A stretch of DNA of 32,000 nt from Candidatus Baldrarchaeum yapensis (GCA_016840465.1 JAEOSH010000007.1:30202-62201); one strand, 5' to 3'. Positions 2,350 through 22,531 are shown, numbered from the stretch's first letter. Made by a program: numbers and translations. Notes: generated by a model not told the origin, from the letters alone.

Positions 2350-3626
2350 TACGGACACACGTGGAACTTGTCTCCAGGCGCAGGACAGTATGCCTCGATG
2401 CCATAAATCTCCCTTAACTCGTTAGCCAACCCAATGGTCGACTCCTCATCACCATGAACCGTGAAAACAGTTGCACCATTGCATACTTTAGTTAACATGG
2501 AAAGTAGTTCGGTCCGGCCCGAGTGAGATGACAATTCAAAGTATCTTATTTCCGCCTTTACCTCCTTTTCCTTTCCACCAATTCTTATCTTCTTCGTCTC
2601 CAGGATTTCCCTGCCTGGCGTCCCCTTAACCTGATATGAAACGTAGAATAGCGCACTAGTCGGGTCGTTGTATATGTACTTTAAGTACCAGTCAGCAGAT
2701 CCTCCAACCAACATGCCTGCCGGTGAAACTATGACGCTGGGGCTTGAAATTACCTTATACCGCTCGTTTGCATCCTGTATCCATTTCACGCTTTTAAGGG
2801 CCTCGACCAGAAGATTGTAATCCTTCACAGCCTCCGGATGTTGTAGTAGTATTCTACTCGCGTGTCTTGCCATCCCGTCAAGAACAACTCTTCCATCGAA
2901 CCCGTATTTTCTGAAAATACACAGAACCTCCTGTGACCTGCCAACCGAAAATGCGGGTATCAGCACCACGCCGCCTCTTTCCAAAACTTCTTTAGTGGCC
3001 TCTATAAGCTTTCTCTCCTCCCTCTTCCGTGGCGGATGATCTCTAAGCGCGTATGTGCTCTCAGTTATTATTACATCGACGTGTCCGATCTCCGTATCCG
3101 CAGGCCTTAGCAGTTGGGTCTCCCTGGTGTTTATATCCCCGGTGTACCAGATTCTCACCCCATCAATATCGAGTAATATCGATGCGCTACCCGGTATGTG
3201 CCCGGCGTCGAGCAATTTTACTCTTATCCTATCATTAATGTTGTACCACGTGTTCGGATTCAGGAGAATGGCATTGTTGCGCATCAGCTTGACTTCTCTC
3301 TTACTGAACGGCAGCGGTTCTCTTGCGACATTGAACATGTCATAGATTAGGAGTTCCGTAAGGTCGAGGGTTGCAGGGGTCATTATCACGGGTACTTCTG
3401 AAAAGTTAAACAGCAGTGGTATTGCCCCACTATGGTCAATGTGGGCGTGAGTTAGTATTACTGCATCCAGATGCACGACGTCGCATGGTAGTGGCCATTC
3501 TATCTTTTTAGAGGGTGTGGCACCATAATCCAGCAAAATTCTTCCTTCTTCACACTCGACAAGTATTGCAGAGCATCCTACTTTTCTCGCGCCACCAAGA
3601 AACCTTAACGTGACCTCTTTCTTCAT
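2349..3626 (-). CDS. MBL-fold beta-CASP ribonuclease without KH domains (aCPSF2/aCPSF1b-like)
   Basis: FLGGARKVGCS, THAHIDH, AGHIPGS, YTGD, ESTY, SSH and VHGD motifs. Start at ATG 3626 after a GGAG SD. Confidence 0.88.
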   Translation of the reverse strand: MKKEVTLRFLGGARKVGCSAILVECEEGRILLDYGATPSKKIEWPLPCDVVHLDAVILTHAHIDHSGAIPLLFNFSEVPVIMTPATLDLTELLIYDMFNVAREPLPFSKREVKLMRNNAILLNPNTWYNINDRIRVKLLDAGHIPGSASILLDIDGVRIWYTGDINTRETQLLRPADTEIGHVDVIITESTYALRDHPPRKREERKLIEATKEVLERGGVVLIPAFSVGRSQEVLCIFRKYGFDGRVVLDGMARHASRILLQHPEAVKDYNLLVEALKSVKWIQDANERYKVISSPSVIVSPAGMLVGGSADWYLKYIYNDPTSALFYVSYQVKGTPGREILETKKIRIGGKEKEVKAEIRYFELSSHSGRTELLSMLTKVCNGATVFTVHGDEESTIGLANELREIYGIEAYCPAPGDKFHVCP

Positions 3627-3676
3627 TTTTCTCTCCACTATGGGTTTTCGCTCTTTGTTGAAAGGAGAGACTATGA

Positions 3677-3683
3677 ATTTAAA
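3677..3683 (-). promoter_or_regulatory. Putative TATA box (TTTAAAT) for the beta-CASP/ureohydrolase/DUF89 unit
   Basis: TTTAAAT on the minus strand about 50 nt upstream of ATG 3626. Confidence 0.4.
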
Positions 3684-3760
3684 GCTTATGATAGCAAGAA
3701 CACCGGACGGCAAAATAATCAGATCAGCGTGCTCGGAATGGACTAGGGTGTGAGAAAAAG

Positions 3761-12495: not shown

Positions 12496-12705
12496 TCACT
12501 TTGACAAAATCCTTTTTCTTAGAGATGAAATGTACTGCTGAAGTTTCTCGGTGGCATTTATCGCAAGAGCAATTTTTCTCTTCATGATGTCATCGTCCAA
12601 ATTCTCCTGTATTCTCTGGAGTTCCGCAAGTAAACTAGATAAAAGATTACTGGCTTCTATGAAACACCTTTCTAGAAGTTCGTACTTCGTGCTCATACAC
12701 ACCAT
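12496..12705 (-). CDS. Small helical (coiled-coil hairpin) hypothetical protein
   Basis: 69 aa, starting 4 nt after the upstream stop and filling the gap. Heptad-like Leu pattern. Confidence 0.6.
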   Translation of the reverse strand: MVCMSTKYELLERCFIEASNLLSSLLAELQRIQENLDDDIMKRKIALAINATEKLQQYISSLRKRILSK

Positions 12706-12709
12706 CCTC

Positions 12710-13495
12710 TTAAACTTTGGAACACATTTCCTTTAACATTTTGATTGCTCTTTTTACCTTTATCTTGGCCTCCTCCAAGTTACTTCCCCTTGCGGAAACC
12801 CAGACTTTAATTCTAATCGTATCCCTGAACGCCCCCGGCATCGACTTTATATATACTCCCTCGATTTTCCTCATAACCTCGTCTATTAGTGGTGAAAGCT
12901 TGGATTCGTCGATTATGGGCATTTCAGCAATTTCCTCATACATGACGCCCTTGATTCTGGACTTTATTATTTCTGAAACCTGATTATCGAATATCCATTT
13001 GAGTTCTCGGGGAACTCCAGGAAGACATATTATCATCGCGTTCGGAAGTTCTAATAACACTCCAGGCGCCCCTCCAACCCTGTTATCGAGGGCTTTTGCT
13101 CCCTCAGGCAACATTGCCATCTTCTTCCTAGGTGGTGTTATCTCAGGTGTATCCACTATACCAAGTTGATAAAAAAGTTGATACTGCCTTTTAACAATTT
13201 CTAGTGCCTCCTCGTTAAGCACTAACTTTAAATTGAACGCGTGAGCCACACCCTCTAGGGTTTTATCGTCATGTGTAGGGCCAAGTCCTCCACTTGTTAT
13301 CACAATTTCGCAACCATCATCAATTAATCGTTTTAACGCCTTTGCAATATCATTCACGTTATCTCTCACTACCATTATTTCCTTTACCAAAAAACCCATT
13401 TCCTTCAACTTCTTCGCAAGCCAATTGCTGTTCGTGTCCTGGATTACTCCGTCAAGTATCTCATTTCCGATCACAAGTATCCCCACAGTTATCAT
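12710..13495 (-). CDS. CinA N-terminal / molybdopterin-binding-domain protein (COG1058)
   Basis: VIGNEILDGVIQDTNS, SGGLGPTHDDKT and LPGVPRE. Start at ATG 13495 after GAGGGGGTGGG. Confidence 0.88.
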   Translation of the reverse strand: MITVGILVIGNEILDGVIQDTNSNWLAKKLKEMGFLVKEIMVVRDNVNDIAKALKRLIDDGCEIVITSGGLGPTHDDKTLEGVAHAFNLKLVLNEEALEIVKRQYQLFYQLGIVDTPEITPPRKKMAMLPEGAKALDNRVGGAPGVLLELPNAMIICLPGVPRELKWIFDNQVSEIIKSRIKGVMYEEIAEMPIIDESKLSPLIDEVMRKIEGVYIKSMPGAFRDTIRIKVWVSARGSNLEEAKIKVKRAIKMLKEMCSKV

Positions 13496-13505
13496 TCCCA
13501 CCCCC

Positions 13506-14084
13506 TCAACGACTTCGTGCTCGCCATTCAAATGCAATTACCACAAACATTATGAAAATGAAGAATGCAACCAGCATCGGAGTGAACGTCTTGACAATAT
13601 ATCGTACTGCAAGCATTTTCATATCCTCAATATTTACTATCGTTCTTCGTGCGAATACCAGCAGTATCACATATGCGCCATACGCTGCAAACACGGGCCA
13701 TGCCAAGTACCCGCCTCCTAGAAGCATAAGTAAAATTGCGACGCCCAACTTGCTAAACGTTGGGTCGAGTACCTGATGGGGCAATTCTTCATCGGGGTCG
13801 TATTGAAAATAGTATGTTAGTAGGAACGGTGGGATTTCAAGCCTAATAAGGGAAATTGCTTGAAGAGCCGCCTGTATTGGCAGTAAAACGGCGCAAATAA
13901 CAAGCGCATAAAGAAACAACATGTCAGAGAGCGAAGATGGAGGGAAAATATGGGGAAATGCCTCAGTAATTCCTATAAATGCCAATCCTATGAAAACAAC
14001 AGATATTATATGGATGACAGCGGCCTTAAATGCGTGTTTAAGGTTCCTTATCTTTACTTCCTTTTCCTCTTCGACCCCCAGCAT
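13506..14084 (-). CDS. Integral membrane hypothetical protein (about 4 TM segments)
   Basis: Four long hydrophobic segments. Lies within the serS-cinA run, overlapping the serS 3' end. Confidence 0.7.
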   Translation of the reverse strand: MLGVEEEKEVKIRNLKHAFKAAVIHIISVVFIGLAFIGITEAFPHIFPPSSLSDMLFLYALVICAVLLPIQAALQAISLIRLEIPPFLLTYYFQYDPDEELPHQVLDPTFSKLGVAILLMLLGGGYLAWPVFAAYGAYVILLVFARRTIVNIEDMKMLAVRYIVKTFTPMLVAFFIFIMFVVIAFEWRARSR

Positions 14085-15651
14085 TTCCCCTGCCCCCAGG
14101 CGGCCATGTTATCAATTTGGGAACTTCGGGCAATTCATCCCCAATGTACTTCTTTATTTCATCGGGCCATTCGTTGAATTCAAAACCCCATCTCGTCAGG
14201 AAGACATATGCCCATCTGGACGGACCAATACCAGCGCACCCTGTCCATATGGGTCTATTTGCACGGTCTCTAAACCTGAACCTCTTAGCGTAAAAGTCCG
14301 TATGCACATGGAACGATGAAATTTCCAGCTCCGCCTCTGGTCGGCTCTTCGTTTGGAAAGGCAATATTACCGTGAGATCATATGTTTTCACGAATTCAGT
14401 ACTTTCTTCTTTTTCAACTTTACCAGCATGTTCCAAATACACGGCAGTTGTTGCATCAACCCTCCACTCTAGGTCAAAGATTTTGTCAATGATTTCAACG
14501 GCCCGTTCAAGAACTTGATCACGTATTTCAATGCATTTTTCGGGAGTTGTTAGCCATGTAAACTCTATCCTGTGGAACTCATTAAGCCTCTCTAAACCTT
14601 TCAGCCCACCTCCTTCCCAGCGCCATGTTGGCCCATTTCTGTCAAAGAACTTTATGGGGTTCTTTTCAAGTTCGCTTGCGTCCACAATCTCGTTACGGAA
14701 GAGCTCGTAGAACGGCTCACATTGGGCATACGAGAGCGCGTATAATGGCGGTCTCAGTTTTTCCTTGAGCAGATCAACTGGTATTTCATCGGTTATTTCA
14801 ACGAGGTCTATGAAATCCTCAAAGTCCTCGACATTCCTAGAAATCGGTGGACAGACGAATAGCATCTCGTGCGGAATTGCAAGTTGCCCCTTTCTCTTCT
14901 CAACATCAAGGGGTATCAACCTAGGAAATATTACCTCGATGAATCCGAGTGGTTTTGCTATCCTGTCTATCACAAGTTGCTCTATAGCTCTTATTAATGC
15001 AGTGAAGGGAGGCAACAATTGCCAGACACCGGCACCCGGATATTCTTTAACCCATCCGAGCCTCACAGCCTCTTCTGTCGGATCGCTCCTTAACTTGTAC
15101 TTATGGAGTCTGGGCTCGCTTCTCCTGACTGTTCTTACGAACTCCGCCTTGCCTCTTATTCTCTGTGCAATGATCTTTTCTTCAAGTCTTCTGAGCAGTC
15201 TATCAATGTAATTATCGCGTAGCGCTTTCTCATCGATATCTTCAAGTTCAAGGTACACCTTTTTTCCGTCAAATCTAAGCTCCTTAACGAAAGGCAACCT
15301 TACGGGCTCTAAAGGCTCCTCCGAAACCTCGGTCTCTATTTTAAATTCCTGCACCTCTATGTCCTTTACCCCAATCTTGTACTTTCTACCTAGATTTGCA
15401 GCGAGAACGTTCTTTAATCGAAGAATCGCAACATGGGACCTGACATATCGCCCACTCATTATGTGGACCCATATTCCATCGTCTAATATTTTCCAGTCAA
15501 CAATTCTTGGGGCCTCCTCTCTTTTGTCTGCAGGACAACCCTTAAGAAATTCCTTTTCCTCAACTTTTGCAATAAGATCGGCGATGAAGTCCTTAGCATC
15601 CTCGGGTATCTGCCTAGTGAGTTTAAGAACAGCCTTAAGATCAAATTTCAC
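14038..15651 (-). CDS. serS: Seryl-tRNA synthetase, methanogen (type 2, Zn-dependent) form
   Basis: N-domain SGRYVRSHVAILRLK...LGRKYKIG, YAQCEPFY, motif 2 WRWEGGGLKGLERLNEFHRIE and motif 3 WTGCAGIGPSRW. Confidence 0.93.
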   Translation of the reverse strand: MKFDLKAVLKLTRQIPEDAKDFIADLIAKVEEKEFLKGCPADKREEAPRIVDWKILDDGIWVHIMSGRYVRSHVAILRLKNVLAANLGRKYKIGVKDIEVQEFKIETEVSEEPLEPVRLPFVKELRFDGKKVYLELEDIDEKALRDNYIDRLLRRLEEKIIAQRIRGKAEFVRTVRRSEPRLHKYKLRSDPTEEAVRLGWVKEYPGAGVWQLLPPFTALIRAIEQLVIDRIAKPLGFIEVIFPRLIPLDVEKRKGQLAIPHEMLFVCPPISRNVEDFEDFIDLVEITDEIPVDLLKEKLRPPLYALSYAQCEPFYELFRNEIVDASELEKNPIKFFDRNGPTWRWEGGGLKGLERLNEFHRIEFTWLTTPEKCIEIRDQVLERAVEIIDKIFDLEWRVDATTAVYLEHAGKVEKEESTEFVKTYDLTVILPFQTKSRPEAELEISSFHVHTDFYAKRFRFRDRANRPIWTGCAGIGPSRWAYVFLTRWGFEFNEWPDEIKKYIGDELPEVPKLITWPPGGRGNAGGRRGKGSKDKEP

Positions 15652-18065: not shown

Positions 18066-18350
18066 ATGGGAAAAATCGTAAAGATAATCCTGCTATTCAT
18101 CTTACTGGTGATGGTATCGACGTCCTTCTTCTTCCATTGCAATCTGTTGCTGGAACTGGAAGAATCGATTAAATACGGGTATTCTATAATAGGCTTTGAG
18201 CAGAAACCATTCATGTATAAAATAGATCTTTTACGGGGCAGTAAGGAGTATCCGGGAATATGGACACTTGATATCGCGCAAATAACTCTTTTGATATCGC
18301 TGATAATAACATTGGTTTTACTACTGTTAGATATCACTAAAAAAGAATGA
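18066..18350 (+). CDS. Small 2-TM membrane protein
   Basis: 94 aa with hydrophobic N- and C-terminal segments. Starts 4 nt after the moaA stop. Confidence 0.55.
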   Translation: MGKIVKIILLFILLVMVSTSFFFHCNLLLELEESIKYGYSIIGFEQKPFMYKIDLLRGSKEYPGIWTLDIAQITLLISLIITLVLLLLDITKKE

Positions 18351-18364
18351 ATTGGAAATTAAAG

Positions 18365-19543
18365 TCAGAACAACTTATTCGAGAGTATATGGACACACGA
18401 CACCTGGGGTCCTGCACCGCCAATGTTGTGCTGTAATCCGATCTCTGCACCCTCAACTTGCCTTTTTCCAGCCTCGTTTCTGAGTTGCCAGAAGATCTCA
18501 ACTATCTGCGCGGTCCCAGTCGCGCCTATCGGATGTCCATGAGACTTCAATCCACCACTCGGATTCACTGGCAACTTTCCGCCAAGGTATGGTATTCCCT
18601 CCTCTATGAACTTCCCTCCCTCGCCCTTCTTGCAGAATCCAAGATCCTCATAGCTTATCAACTCGGTCGGTGTGAAGCAGTCGTGCACCTCCGCGAAGTC
18701 TATGTCCTTAGGCTCTATCTTTGCCATCTTATACGCTTGTCTTGCTGCCTCAACTGTAGGTTCCATGGTAACATAAGACTTCCTTAAATGTATCAGGAAG
18801 GGGTTCGTTGCAAGCCCACTTCCCTGGACATACACTGGTGCATCCGTGTACTTCTTCGCAAGGTCTGCTCTACATACTATAACGGCGGCGGCTCCGTCAG
18901 TTATCGGGCAACAATCCAGAAGGTGCAGAGGCCACGAAACTATCGGCGACTTTAGCACATCTTCGACCTTTATTTCCCTTCTAATATGCGAATAAGGATT
19001 GAGAGCCCCATGCTTGTGGTTCTTTACCGCAATCATTGCAAAATGCTCTATTTTCGTACCGAACTCGTGCATGTGGCGTGTGGCGTAAAGAGCAAAGGCG
19101 GAAGGCATCGTTATTGCGTAAACCCATGGATAGTGAGGAACCGCACGCCCTATTGCCTCTATGAGTCCACCTGGTCTATCTAACATCTTTTCGCAAGAAA
19201 TGACCAGTACCACATCATAAAGCCCAGCGGCAACAGCCATACATGCGTTTCTAAAAGCGTCACTACCAGTTGCGCACGCATTCTCGACGCGTGTTATCGG
19301 TTTTCCTACGAGCCCTGTGACCTCGGCAACAGTGGCCCCAGTTGCCGGTCCCATAACCGTACCGTACCACACTGCCTCGATTTCCTTCTGTGGGTCGATA
19401 CCCTTATCAACGCTGTTTATACAGTTGATATAAGCCTCAGCAAGCATATCCTCGAAACTCTTGTCGTAATGTTCCCCGAAGGGTATCATCCCCGCTCCTA
19501 CTACCGCAACCTTATTCCTCAGGGATCTTATCTCGATCGACAT
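18365..19543 (-). CDS. Thiolase (archaeal/SCP2-type acetyl-CoA acyltransferase)
   Basis: VENACATG (nucleophile Cys), VKNH, CCPITDGAAA, EVHDCF and GHPIGATG. Confidence 0.93.
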   Translation of the reverse strand: MSIEIRSLRNKVAVVGAGMIPFGEHYDKSFEDMLAEAYINCINSVDKGIDPQKEIEAVWYGTVMGPATGATVAEVTGLVGKPITRVENACATGSDAFRNACMAVAAGLYDVVLVISCEKMLDRPGGLIEAIGRAVPHYPWVYAITMPSAFALYATRHMHEFGTKIEHFAMIAVKNHKHGALNPYSHIRREIKVEDVLKSPIVSWPLHLLDCCPITDGAAAVIVCRADLAKKYTDAPVYVQGSGLATNPFLIHLRKSYVTMEPTVEAARQAYKMAKIEPKDIDFAEVHDCFTPTELISYEDLGFCKKGEGGKFIEEGIPYLGGKLPVNPSGGLKSHGHPIGATGTAQIVEIFWQLRNEAGKRQVEGAEIGLQHNIGGAGPQVSCVHILSNKLF

Positions 19544-19557
19544 ATGATCACCTCACA

Positions 19558-19944
19558 CTACCTTATCGGTCTAAATTTATACCCGTATTCCACCCTTCCC
19601 TCTTCCTCGCTTATTCTCCTAAACACTATCTCCACCGGCATATCGACCTTCACTTCCTTGGGATCACATTCTGTCAGGTACCCAGTCAAACGGGCGCCAT
19701 CTTCCATCTCGACAACCGCATAAATTGCCGGAGTTTCAGCGCCCCGCGGCATTATGTAGCTTATTGTGTAGGTAACGATTTTTCCTTTCCTTGCAACCTC
19801 AACCTTTTCGAGGTCTGTGCTTCCGCATTCTATACAGATTTTCCTAGTTGGAAACATTATTTTCCCGCATTTCTTGCATTTTGAAGCTTCTAACCTATAA
19901 ATCGATGGACTCAGCCTCCAAAAATCTGGAAATGCGGTTGCCAT
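19558..19944 (-). CDS. DUF35 Zn-ribbon/OB-fold scaffold protein
   Basis: ASKCKKCGKIMFPTRKICIECGS, GKIVTYT, and VEIVFRR...YGYKFRP. Confidence 0.92.
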   Translation of the reverse strand: MATAFPDFWRLSPSIYRLEASKCKKCGKIMFPTRKICIECGSTDLEKVEVARKGKIVTYTISYIMPRGAETPAIYAVVEMEDGARLTGYLTECDPKEVKVDMPVEIVFRRISEEEGRVEYGYKFRPIR

Positions 19945-19950
19945 ACCTTA

Positions 19951-21012
19951 TCACCTCATCCCGTACATCATTTGGTATAATTTCAGAAATCTCAAATATG
20001 TCGGGTAATCGATGTACGTCTTCTTGTTGATGTACGTGTTGACTATTTTCTGCCTCTTAGCCTCTATGGCATCAGTCACCTTAATTGAAAAAGCGTCACT
20101 ACAGCCGCTACCATACGATGCCATCAATATCCTTTCTCTCGGTTTCGCCATGTCGAGTACGGCCGCCAGTGCTATTAAAACCGATGCACATCCGCAATCT
20201 CCGATGAACTGCGCAATGGGCATCATTCCGGCCATTATGTGAGCAGGTGTTAACCCGATCTTTGGTGCAAGTCTCATCAAGTAACCTCTAGGGTCAGGCG
20301 GTTCTGTGAACACGGCATACTTGAAATCGGATGGCTTGAGATTCAGTTTCTCATATAGGCTCTTGCACGCTTTCTCCACATGCATTATGTAACCAAACTC
20401 CCTCGAGAACCTTGACAAGGAAACCCTTGGCACTTGGTCCTCGACGTTCTTCCAACGCTCTGTGAAGTCAGTAGAATATGTGGCGAACCCCTCGATTTCT
20501 GCAATGATGTTGTCCTTGCCCAGAACTAGCGCAGCGGCTCCCGCACTCATTGTGAACTCCATGCCTTCCCTATCGCCAGGTGGTGGCACCAGCACATCAG
20601 TCCCTATCACGAGGCCATAATTTACTTCTCCCGATCTTATTGCGTTTACGCATGCTATAAGAGCGGCAGTACTGGCTCTCGCCGATCCTGTGAAGTCTAT
20701 CCTCTGTGCACTCGCACTTGCTCCGACAACTTCGGCAATTATCGTTGATACTTGCTTTTCCAAATACGGGCTGCTTGTTGTTCCGACGTATACTGCACCA
20801 AGTTCACTGCCATCAATTTTTGCATGCTTAATTGCGTTTAATGCCGCTTCCACGGCCATCGTGACAGCGTCCTCGTCATAATACGGCACCGTTTTTTCGC
20901 CTGGTGGCTTCATTGGTAGCTTCCAGGCCTCAGCGATGTCTGACAATTTTATCCTGCACCAGGGAATATAGACGCCGTATCCAACAATGCCCGCCTTAGG
21001 TCCATCAGACAA
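19951..21012 (-). CDS. HMG-CoA synthase-like protein lacking catalytic residues (PhlA-like pseudoenzyme)
   Basis: AGIVGYGVYIP, DEDAVTMAVEAA and SYGSG confirm the fold, but the catalytic Glu, Cys and His motifs are replaced. Probable TTG start at 21012 after a GGTGA SD; the ORF track start at 21087 spans a TATA box. Confidence 0.85.
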   Translation of the reverse strand: MSDGPKAGIVGYGVYIPWCRIKLSDIAEAWKLPMKPPGEKTVPYYDEDAVTMAVEAALNAIKHAKIDGSELGAVYVGTTSSPYLEKQVSTIIAEVVGASASAQRIDFTGSARASTAALIACVNAIRSGEVNYGLVIGTDVLVPPPGDREGMEFTMSAGAAALVLGKDNIIAEIEGFATYSTDFTERWKNVEDQVPRVSLSRFSREFGYIMHVEKACKSLYEKLNLKPSDFKYAVFTEPPDPRGYLMRLAPKIGLTPAHIMAGMMPIAQFIGDCGCASVLIALAAVLDMAKPRERILMASYGSGCSDAFSIKVTDAIEAKRQKIVNTYINKKTYIDYPTYLRFLKLYQMMYGMR

Positions 21013-21061
21013 TTTGATCACCGGAATTACATGACTAGGCAGAAAAAATGTCATAATCGCA

Positions 21062-21069
21062 TATATAAA
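21062..21069 (-). promoter_or_regulatory. Putative TATA box (TTTATATA) of the HMGCS-like/DUF35/thiolase operon
   Basis: TTTATATA on the minus strand, 50 nt upstream of TTG 21012. Confidence 0.55.
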
Positions 21070-21112
21070 GGTTCCACGGGTATGCAACTGGCGAAATTTA
21101 GGAAAATAACTT

Positions 21113-22531
21113 TCAACAACGAATATCTCCTTTCCTCAGTTTTATTCGTTCACGAACCTCAGCATATTTTGCAAGCCCGGCTAATGCCTTAACCGCTCTC
21201 TCGGGCGACGGAAACAGCGGAACTCCCTCCTCCTGCAATTTGTTCAAAAACTCCATATATTCCTTCGGGGGTGCCGTTATGGATGCAACTACCGGCTTTC
21301 CGGTCTCTTCTGCGATCTTTGCAAGTTTCCTAAGCGGTGGAAGAACTACTGGATGATACAGCGAGATGAACAAGAGAGCATCGACATTTGGATCCTTTGC
21401 AATGGCATCTAGGCACTTTTCCACGACCAGAGGATTCGTTGTCGAAACAAACCCTAAGTCAACCGGGTTTGATCTTATGGTAACTGGCGGAAGCAACTCC
21501 CCTATGATATTAGTTGTATCTTCCGAAAACTCTGCAACTTCAAGTCCATGTTCATGCAGGAAGTCCAATGCCACCATGGAAGGTCCAGCCTCCTTTGATG
21601 CGATAGCAACTCTCTTCCCTCTCGGTATTGGGCATAAAGATAGTGCCTTGGCAACGTCAAATAATTCGATACAGCTATTCACGATCACTGCACCATGTTG
21701 TTTCAGTCCTGCAATGTACAATTTGTAATTGCCTGCAAGAGCGCCCGTATGCGATAATGACGCCTTATCGCTAATCGGCATTTTACCAACCTTATAAACA
21801 ACTACAGGCTTACGCTCAGAGGCGTATTCCAATGCAGCAAGGAGTTCACGCGCATTCTCCACCCCTTCTATGTAAAGCGCGATTACTCTCGTCTGAGGGT
21901 CATCAGCAAGATAATAGAGCATATCACTGAAGTCAACGATGCACCGATTACCGAGTCCTATTATCTTTCCGAATCCAAGTCCCTCATTCATTCCATAATA
22001 CGCAATTATATGGCAGATACCACCGCTCTGACTGACTATTGAGACGTTTCCCCTCTTCACATTGCTCAATGTTGGGGTAAATGAAGCATTCATTTTTGCG
22101 TGAAGATTGACGATCCCGAATGTGTTTGGGCCGACTATTTTAATCCCATATTTTCTTCCAAGTTTTATTACTTCTTCTTGAAGCTTTATTCCCTCAGCTG
22201 ATCCCGTTTCCTTGAAACCTGCACTTATTATAACGGCGGCTCGTACACCCTTCTCTCCGGCTTCTTTTACCACGGAGGGAACAACTCTCGCCGGCGTTGT
22301 CACCACTATCATATCAACTTCTTCTGGAATGTCTTTTATCGATTTGAAGCCTGGGACATCCTGTACATTTTCGCCTCGTGGATTTACTGCAAATATCCTG
22401 CCCTCGTACCCAGACGTTTTCAAACTCATGACGACATAAAAGCCGAGGTTTTCAAGCCTTGGTGTCGCTCCTACAACGGCTATGCTTCGGGGTTCGAGCA
22501 GGGGCGAATATTCGCTTAATATGTCGGTCAA
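21113..22531 (-). CDS. acdA: ADP-forming acyl-CoA synthetase, alpha subunit
   Basis: SIAVVGA, ISAGFKE, GPNTFG, SQSGG, LYIEG, phospho-His SHTG and NPVDL. Confidence 0.88.
   Translation of the reverse strand: MTDILSEYSPLLEPRSIAVVGATPRLENLGFYVVMSLKTSGYEGRIFAVNPRGENVQDVPGFKSIKDIPEEVDMIVVTTPARVVPSVVKEAGEKGVRAAVIISAGFKETGSAEGIKLQEEVIKLGRKYGIKIVGPNTFGIVNLHAKMNASFTPTLSNVKRGNVSIVSQSGGICHIIAYYGMNEGLGFGKIIGLGNRCIVDFSDMLYYLADDPQTRVIALYIEGVENARELLAALEYASERKPVVVYKVGKMPISDKASLSHTGALAGNYKLYIAGLKQHGAVIVNSCIELFDVAKALSLCPIPRGKRVAIASKEAGPSMVALDFLHEHGLEVAEFSEDTTNIIGELLPPVTIRSNPVDLGFVSTTNPLVVEKCLDAIAKDPNVDALLFISLYHPVVLPPLRKLAKIAEETGKPVVASITAPPKEYMEFLNKLQEEGVPLFPSPERAVKALAGLAKYAEVRERIKLRKGDIRC

Follow-up and report, generated by a model that had tools for sequence, protein, structure and literature searches.

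A 32,000-nucleotide stretch of the genome of the uncultured Asgard archaeon Candidatus Baldrarchaeum yapensis (GCA_016840465.1 JAEOSH010000007.1:30202-62201), hereafter the window, harbors three adjacent genes on the minus strand for a protein related to 3-hydroxy-3-methylglutaryl-CoA (HMG-CoA) synthase (HMGCS), a DUF35 protein and an SCP2-type thiolase. The trio probably constitutes a β-ketothiolase complex outside the mevalonate pathway, in which a catalytic thiolase is combined with a non-catalytic HMGCS-like protein (HMGL) and DUF35, and which would cleave short 3-ketoacyl-CoA. It is an archaeal, unfused member of a kind of complex described in January 2026 and does not represent a new kind of system. 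A preliminary description of the window, made from the sequence alone, had presented the locus as PhlABC-like and of unknown chemistry. This headline was not supported, as the thiolase keeps its HDCF motif whereas the corresponding subunits PhlC and MucB lack HDxF, and as the chemistry of a bacterial member of the class has been published.

Loss of the catalytic tetrad beside an intact thiolase

HMGL was aligned with HMMER to the HMGCS chain 6esq_I of Methanothermococcus thermolithotrophicus and to the canonical HMGCS of the same genome. The alignment with 6esq_I scored 215 bits and contained no gaps around the motifs. The catalytic Glu of GSESHPY is replaced by Thr79 in GTTSSPY (codon 20776-20778), the nucleophilic Cys of EFACKAG by Ala111 in GSARAS (20680-20682), the His of FHQP by Thr236 in FTEP (20305-20307) and the Asn of GNTY by Asp272 in GDCG (20197-20199). 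The tetrad of HMGL is T79-A111-T236-D272 instead of the E-C-H-N (ECHN) that is intact in canonical complexes. The four replacements named in the preliminary description were confirmed, and the alignment to active HMGCS and PhlA that it had proposed placed Ala111, and not Cys, at the nucleophile position. Since all four catalytic residues are gone, the trio is not a canonical HMG-CoA-making complex, and the earlier claim that it makes no HMG-CoA is supported by this loss together with the presence of an intact HMGCS elsewhere in the genome.

An AlphaFold2 model of HMGL (mean pLDDT 89, pTM 0.90) found its best structural match in the HMGCS of 6ESQ, with a TM-score of 0.88-0.90 and a root-mean-square deviation of 2.1 Å, followed by PhlA (5M3K/5MG5/9SKH) and then MucA (9VBO). 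As judged from the alignment and the model, the predicted fold is intact and the chemistry of HMGCS is gone. The profile NF003274 recognized HMGL above its cut-off (326 versus 244 bits), while the score with TIGR00748 was below the cut-off (285 versus 353 bits). Across and within the clades of HMGCS-like proteins without the tetrad (dead HMGCS), the residues at the four formerly catalytic sites vary widely (T/V/M/D/S, A/T/P/L/C, T/Q/S/Y and D/E/Y/V/N, respectively), and this freedom to vary fits a structural role. In the closest clade, the lost Cys is flanked by an invariant Ser110 and a nearly invariant Arg112, and the S-x-R motif recurs across the Asgard dead-HMGCS clades examined. The dN/dS ratio of dead HMGCS was 0.05-0.13 in five Asgard pairs, and that of the partner thiolases was 0.04-0.07 in three of four pairs, dS being saturated in the fourth. 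The low ratios in these relatives indicate that the dead subunit is under purifying selection.

In the thiolase, alignment and a motif table confirmed that the nucleophile Cys90 (ENACATG, codon 19274-19276), the HDCF motif with His287 (18683-18685) and Cys289 (18677-18679), and the GHP motif with His337 (18533-18535) are all retained, as had been described. HDCF is likewise kept by every thiolase examined that is partnered with a dead HMGCS. The thiolase scored 270 bits with the thiolase of 6ESQ (6esq_A) and 122 bits with PhlC. The DUF35 protein, whose co-encoded, unfused gene lies between those of HMGL and the thiolase, has an intact zinc ribbon (CxxC...CxxC; Cys23, 26, 37 and 40), and its best match in the PDB was 6esq_E (97 bits), followed by PhlB. 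The NCBIfam profiles for BbsB (242 bits against a cut-off of 750) and BbsA (59 against 250) both remained far below threshold.

Canonical mevalonate genes and the distribution of dead modules

The assembly to which the window belongs comprises 2.27 Mb and is 96% complete. It contains three HMGCS-like genes, namely, a canonical one on contig C96, a dead one on contig C12 and the copy in the window. The genome search for a second, intact HMGCS that the preliminary description had called for was therefore successful: C96:8492-10012 (locus L071) encodes a canonical HMGCS::DUF35 fusion of 506 aa with the ECHN tetrad, scoring 577 bits with TIGR00748 and adjoining the genes for mevalonate kinase and type-2 isopentenyl diphosphate (IPP) isomerase. 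The C12 copy, with T-L-Y-V at the tetrad positions, forms a fusion with DUF35, and a thiolase gene follows it. In total, the genome has eight genes of the SCP2-type thiolase fold and about ten for DUF35 proteins. Among the former, the thiolase at C84:31876-33015 (locus L154:4877-6034) was recovered as sister (98/97) to the thiolases encoded in mevalonate operons of genomes of the same order. Owing to this grouping, the C84 thiolase and the C96 HMGCS::DUF35 are predicted to form the real mevalonate complex, and the window trio is a paralogous module. The C84 thiolase has no adjacent DUF35 gene, whereas relatives of the same order keep an unfused HMGCS-thiolase-DUF35 operon.

Two other candidates for the thiolase partner of the canonical HMGCS were rejected. 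The window thiolase was considered as the mevalonate thiolase since no intact thiolase adjoins the HMGCS::DUF35 gene, but the tree gives the C84 protein as the ortholog. Close to the mevalonate cluster, the thiolase-like gene at C96:3386-4627 encodes a protein that lacks the nucleophile Cys as well as the His of HDxF. The same two residues are missing from the products of two tandem genes at C9:27309-29567, and all three of these thiolase-fold genes lie beside DUF35. Their motifs are VFVGGGTGV/EVYDPFD and VEIGGVSSL/EVYGPFS, and the proteins may be either pseudoenzymes of the thiolase type or aldolase-like. Also, three mevalonate-operon thiolases of Asgard genomes of the same order, L044 (G007), L045 (G039) and L047 (G018), each in the ORF at 2539-3696 on the plus strand, read IEAAGASGG with Gly in place of the nucleophile Cys; their ortholog in the present genome (G000) keeps the Cys (IECSCSSGG).

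Among 5.8 billion proteins, the closest to HMGL showed 49-55% identity; all of them carried dead motifs, and the named ones belonged to Bathyarchaeia. The best non-self match among 300 genomes of the same phylum was 46% identical. In these 300 genomes, the dead form had the gene order HMGL-DUF35-thiolase in nine genomes of two families and thiolase-HMGL-DUF35 in two genomes of the same order, while every canonical ECHN gene found in Asgard genomes was arranged as HMGCS-thiolase-DUF35. The window, with HMGL-DUF35-thiolase, departs from the canonical complexes in gene order as well as in the orthology of its thiolase. A scan of prokaryotes with one genome per species revealed 72 canonical ECHN loci versus 8 dead ones. 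The latter were the unfused locus of Bathyarchaeota L072, a locus of a Dehalococcoidia member, and pairs of a fused HMGL::DUF35 with a thiolase in Desulfobacteria, 'Deltaproteobacteria' and Pseudomonadota metagenome-assembled genomes (MAGs) as well as in an unclassified bacterial MAG. The gene order of the Bathyarchaeota locus likewise deviates from the canonical one. In a metagenome scan, members of the closest clade were absent among the matches listed, which comprised only canonical HMGCS and bacterial fused forms.

In the maximum-likelihood thiolase tree, all thiolases partnered with dead HMGCS grouped together (100/100) and were separate from the mevalonate thiolases, and the window thiolase was placed inside this clade with the C12 copy and six proteins from other Asgard genomes. 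In the unrooted HMGCS tree, the 27 canonical sequences sampled formed a single clade (100) and the dead forms several clades outside it; the window HMGL branched off first within a clade of 12 members (98) that it shares with Bathyarchaeia-type sequences. The modules of dead HMGCS, thiolase and DUF35 appear to be old and are widespread in Asgard archaea, Bathyarchaeia, Chloroflexota and Desulfobacterota.

Relation to known complexes and proposed function

The complex that resembles the trio best is PfACAT/HMGS-DUF35 of Pseudomonas fluorescens, in which E-C-H-N is lost and the thiolase keeps Cys, HDxF and GHx (Liao et al., Nat Commun 2026;17:2196, PMC12960953). It cleaves acetoacetyl-CoA thiolytically, with an essential HDxF His, and forms neither HMG-CoA nor acetoacetyl-CoA from acetyl-CoA. 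The same study reported about 1,000 'minimal' bacterial HMGS-ACAT-DUF35 loci, and it showed that the acyltransferase subunits PhlC and MucB have lost HDxF and gained acceptor-binding residues. Archaeal complexes were treated there as canonical only, the bacterial form was called an 'evolutionary intermediate', and the loss of the synthase was explained by bacteria having been freed from the mevalonate pathway (PMC12960953). The window trio shares with this class an HMGCS-like protein without the tetrad, a thiolase with Cys, HDxF and GHx, the DUF35 protein and the lack of recognized polyketide synthase (PKS) or non-ribosomal peptide synthetase (NRPS) neighbors; among the window neighbors scanned, no PKS/NRPS gene was recognized, several ORFs being without a Pfam match. 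Bacterial thiolases partnered with dead HMGCS scored 432-459 bits with the window thiolase, compared with 270-366 bits for Asgard mevalonate thiolases. In contrast to PfACAT/HMGS-DUF35, HMGL and DUF35 are encoded by separate genes in the window, the host is an archaeon with a canonical mevalonate complex, and HMGL belongs to the Bathyarchaeia-type clade.

The thiolase/HMGCS/DUF35 complex of M. thermolithotrophicus (PDB 6ESQ/6ET9) was reportedly described by Vogeli et al. in PNAS in 2018. It has three components like the trio and provides the best sequence match for all three window proteins as well as the best fold match for HMGL; it differs in that the HMGCS active site is abolished in HMGL, the gene order is another and the thiolase belongs to another clade. 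PhlABC (PpATase; 5M3K/5MG5/9SKH) and MucABC (SmaATase; 9VBO/9VBT) are similarly tripartite and contain a tetrad-less HMGCS-like subunit, but the window thiolase differs from theirs in keeping HDCF. BbsAB (7PXP) and the Sulfolobus KT/DUF35 complex (Saci_1121/1120) have an SCP2-type HDxF thiolase dependent on a DUF35 partner and, unlike the trio, no HMGCS-like third subunit; Asgard genomes contain about 3.8 KT/DUF35 pairs each according to the authors of the Sulfolobus work. Because PhlC lacks HDxF while the window thiolase keeps HDCF, the trio is best matched to the PfACAT/HMGS-DUF35 class and not to the PhlABC class.

By analogy with these systems, the thiolase would be the sole catalytic subunit, and HMGL would take no part in catalysis but would be retained for assembly and probably also for a shared CoA pocket. 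DUF35 would act as a clamp between them, as it does in the archaeal and bacterial complexes of solved structure. The reaction would be the reversible conversion of a short 3-ketoacyl-CoA and CoA into two acyl-CoAs, with acetoacetyl-CoA as the foremost candidate for the substrate. Net flux would be toward cleavage, which should be thermodynamically favored since no active HMGCS pulls condensation forward, and the acetyl-CoA could feed ADP-forming acyl-CoA synthetases for ATP. Assembly of the complex, its substrate, the direction of the reaction and a tie to the neighboring synthetase gene (AcdA) are inferred. The earlier suggestion of an acyltransferase or degradative thiolase with a pseudoenzyme scaffold is retained in its degradative part; the acyltransferase part is disfavored by the retention of HDCF.

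The neighborhoods of relatives point in the same direction. In the closest named relative, Bathyarchaeota L072 (352 bits for HMGL, 605 bits for the thiolase), a 3-hydroxyacyl-CoA dehydrogenase gene lies 13 nt upstream of the module, and divergently oriented genes encode a crotonase and a 4-hydroxybutyryl-CoA dehydratase (371 bits to 1U8V). Taken together, the predicted products would cover every step by which 4-hydroxybutyryl-CoA is converted to two acetyl-CoA. In the Asgard genome G012, acyl-CoA dehydrogenase (ACAD), beta-keto acid cleavage enzyme (BKACE), AcdA, HMGL, DUF35 and thiolase genes follow one another in this order on a single strand, and bacterial dead modules lie among genes for ACAD, crotonase and B12-dependent mutase. 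Dead modules are usually found in acyl-CoA breakdown operons. The G012 locus (L064, C1:1114000-1133900; 12505-13521, minus strand) carries BKACE and ACAD ahead of AcdA and the dead trio, and a gene for a SNAP-like protein of eukaryotic type lies nearby. The genome of the window itself contains acyl-CoA genes that need a thiolase (4 HBD, about 6 or more crotonase, 8 ACAD and 2 4-hydroxybutyryl-CoA dehydratase genes).

Several observations weigh against the proposed function. No β-oxidation gene lies beside the window trio, whose neighbors are housekeeping genes (adk/moaA/serS), and substrate and direction are therefore taken from relatives; the dead-module loci of the Asgard family f18 also lie amid housekeeping genes. 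The assayed member of the class is a Pseudomonas protein, a distant, fused relative of the archaeal forms. Four of the seven other thiolase-fold paralogs of the genome (those on C12, C58, C84 and C89) also keep the catalytic motifs, and so the window thiolase need not be the acetoacetyl-CoA enzyme. HMGL also carries Cys273 and Cys275 (GDCGCAS; 20188-20196, minus strand) in the loop that bears the catalytic Asn of true HMGCS; relatives have Thr or Ser at these positions, and the two residues look lineage-specific.

The same complex might instead work in the condensing direction, providing acetoacetyl-CoA or longer 3-ketoacyl-CoAs for butyrate fermentation, reverse β-oxidation or archaeal fatty-acid synthesis independent of acyl carrier protein, with a reductase pulling the reaction and AcdA releasing the acid with a gain of ATP. 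Thiolases are reversible, and the 3-hydroxyacyl-CoA dehydrogenase right ahead of the Bathyarchaeota module could pull condensation. We nevertheless regard this as rather unlikely: PfACAT/HMGS-DUF35 made no acetoacetyl-CoA from acetyl-CoA in vitro (PMC12960953), the Sulfolobus complex has an SDR reductase and MaoC dehydratase as partners instead of an HMGCS-like protein, neither partner being recognized in the window, and the 4-hydroxybutyryl-CoA dehydratase of the Bathyarchaeota locus points to the direction from 4-hydroxybutyrate to acetyl-CoA. A further alternative, to which we give little credence, is that HMGL is not dead but has acquired a new catalytic or ligand site from Ser110, Arg112 and Asp272, for example for a carboxylate like acetoacetate, and maybe coupled to AcdA. 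The conservation of the S-x-R motif and the low dN/dS would agree with it, as would the interfacial chamber that persists in the acyltransferase complexes (Liao et al., PMC12960953), but the formerly catalytic residues vary widely between and within dead clades, and such an activity is known for no member.

It is very improbable that the trio is a Friedel–Crafts C-acyltransferase of the PhlABC/MucABC type transferring acetyl to a small acceptor other than CoA. Among the structure and sequence matches of HMGL, PhlA ranks second and MucA third, both lack the tetrad, and PhlA also has Asp at the Asn position (compare mut4, E82C/C114G/H238Q/N270D, of PMC12960953). The difference lies in HDxF, absent from PhlC and MucB and kept as HDCF by the window thiolase and all dead-module partners examined; moreover, the thiolase is far closer in score to its 6ESQ counterpart than to PhlC, the relatives occur in acyl-CoA catabolic operons, and no PKS/NRPS gene was recognized among the window neighbors scanned. 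That the trio is still an HMG-CoA synthase complex of the mevalonate pathway, a first or second one with unconventional residues, is barely credible. The score above the NF003274 cut-off and the database name of the clade, 'hydroxymethylglutaryl-CoA synthase', would suggest it, but the tetrad is fully replaced, replacement of the tetrad in the archaeal enzyme abolished HMG-CoA formation (PMC12960953), and the canonical HMGCS, mevalonate kinase, IPP isomerase and orthologous mevalonate thiolase are encoded elsewhere in the genome.

The locus adds evidence that archaea can possess dead modules alongside a full canonical mevalonate set, that gene order and thiolase clade, along with the tetrad, separate dead from canonical modules in the genomes examined, and that the nearest relative provides a 4-hydroxybutyrate-branch context. 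The present archaeon needs mevalonate and has the complete canonical set in addition to the dead module, a combination that fits duplication and specialization better than release from the mevalonate pathway. The trio offers a candidate thiolase for the short-chain acyl-CoA (4-hydroxybutyrate/crotonyl-CoA) metabolism prominent in Asgard genomes. A broader proposal is advanced with considerable reservation: the module could be an ancient archaeal paralog of the mevalonate complex, retained beside the canonical set here and probably in Bathyarchaeia as well, with HMGL as an obligatory CoA-pocket or regulatory subunit bearing the Ser-x-Arg site, and serving in Asgard archaea an ATP-yielding cleavage of acetoacetyl-CoA (4-hydroxybutyrate/butyrate branch) with ADP-forming acyl-CoA synthetases. 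If so, the dead module would not be a bacterial by-product of the loss of the mevalonate pathway. For annotation, a mevalonate step, or a second one, is liable to be miscounted in reconstructions of Asgard archaea, Bathyarchaeia and Chloroflexota, because NF003274 passes the pseudoenzyme and public records name the clade HMG-CoA synthase.

Gene layout and the neighboring acyl-CoA synthetase

The four minus-strand ORFs of the preliminary description, i.e., the trio and the AcdA-like gene ahead of it, were confirmed at the coordinates it had given (Table 1). DUF35 starts 6 nt past the HMGL stop and the thiolase 14 nt past the DUF35 stop. For HMGL, the TTG at 21012 and an in-frame GTG at 21021 are available as starts, the longest ORF reaching 21087. 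The TTG is the probable start, since a GGTGA motif precedes it and the homologs, which begin 2-4 residues ahead of GIVGYG, coincide with it; taken from this codon, the gap between AcdA and HMGL is 100 nt. The TATA-like octamer TTTATATA, located 41-50 nt ahead of the possible start codons, had been taken as a promoter of the trio and was found at its place on the minus strand. Three copies are present in the window where 1.5 would be expected, and a count of three was reached in 24 of 100 shuffles. Statistical support for the box was therefore rejected, its frequency being at chance level, and it is the position of the octamer that suggests a putative transcription of the trio separate from AcdA.

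Table 1. Annotated features of the trio and its flanks, with positions counted from the first nucleotide of the window.
Feature	Position	Strand	Basis
ADP-forming acyl-CoA synthetase alpha subunit (AcdA-like, 472 aa)	21113-22531	-	Pfam CoA_binding_2, Succ_CoA_lig, Ligase_CoA_2
HMG-CoA-synthase-like pseudoenzyme (HMGL, 353 aa)	19951-21012	-	NF003274, 6esq_I alignment, AlphaFold2 model
DUF35 protein, zinc ribbon and OB fold (128 aa)	19558-19944	-	Pfam zf-ChsH2, OB_ChsH2_C
SCP2-type thiolase (392 aa)	18365-19543	-	NF004720, 448 bits, above cut-off
TATA-like octamer TTTATATA, candidate separate promoter of the trio	21062-21069	-	located in the AcdA/HMGL intergenic gap
GGTGA, Shine-Dalgarno-like motif, 5 nt 5' of the TTG at 21012	21018-21022	-	sequence
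Run of six T, candidate archaeal oligo-T terminator, 21-26 nt past the thiolase stop	18339-18344	-	sequence; function inferred

The AcdA-like protein contains the phosphohistidine motif SHTGALAG with His261 (codon 21749-21751). It scored 426 bits with TIGR02717, below the cut-off of 567, and matched 2csu (300 bits) and the ACD alpha subunit 4xyl (258 bits, with SHTG aligned) in the PDB. The acyl-CoA synthetase neighbor described earlier is present as an AcdA-type gene, though as an alpha subunit alone: no gene for the ATP-grasp beta subunit that such an enzyme needs adjoins it in the window, and the single AcdB-like gene of the genome lies on another contig (C64:19398-20060) beside another alpha. 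The genome has eight AcdA-type alphas (on C30, C72, C54, C64, C12, C65, C28 and C76) versus this one beta, which the eight must share. Several alphas with few betas are also known among the ADP-forming synthetases of Thermococcales. The alpha at C65:2772-4118 has a homolog of 4-hydroxybutyryl-CoA dehydratase about 1.9 kb away.

A link of the trio to AcdA, raised in the preliminary description, was upheld in part. An AcdA paralog lies at most two genes away in three of about ten archaeal dead modules inspected (the window, C12 of the same genome and G012), which is commoner than the chance estimated at about 1-2% per locus from 8 paralogs and about 2,300 genes; the other loci have none. An inherited link was rejected, as the AcdAs adjacent to the window and G012 modules are not orthologs: they score 218 bits with each other, less than the 315 bits of a paralog inside the genome, and the two adjacencies were therefore not inherited together. 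A functional tie, in which the acyl-CoA from thiolysis would be converted to acid and ATP, is plausible but loose.

The window neighbors of the trio comprise adk, moaA, serS, carAB, genes for a CBS-domain protein and a MEMO-like protein, and similar genes. The seryl-tRNA synthetase (14038-15651, minus strand) is of the rare methanogen type with a tRNA_bind_4 domain (NF002120, 519 bits), and its nearest named relatives, with 58-62% identity, are from Jordarchaeum, Promethearchaeota and Freyarchaeota, in agreement with an Asgard MAG. The window also codes for an Arf-family GTPase.

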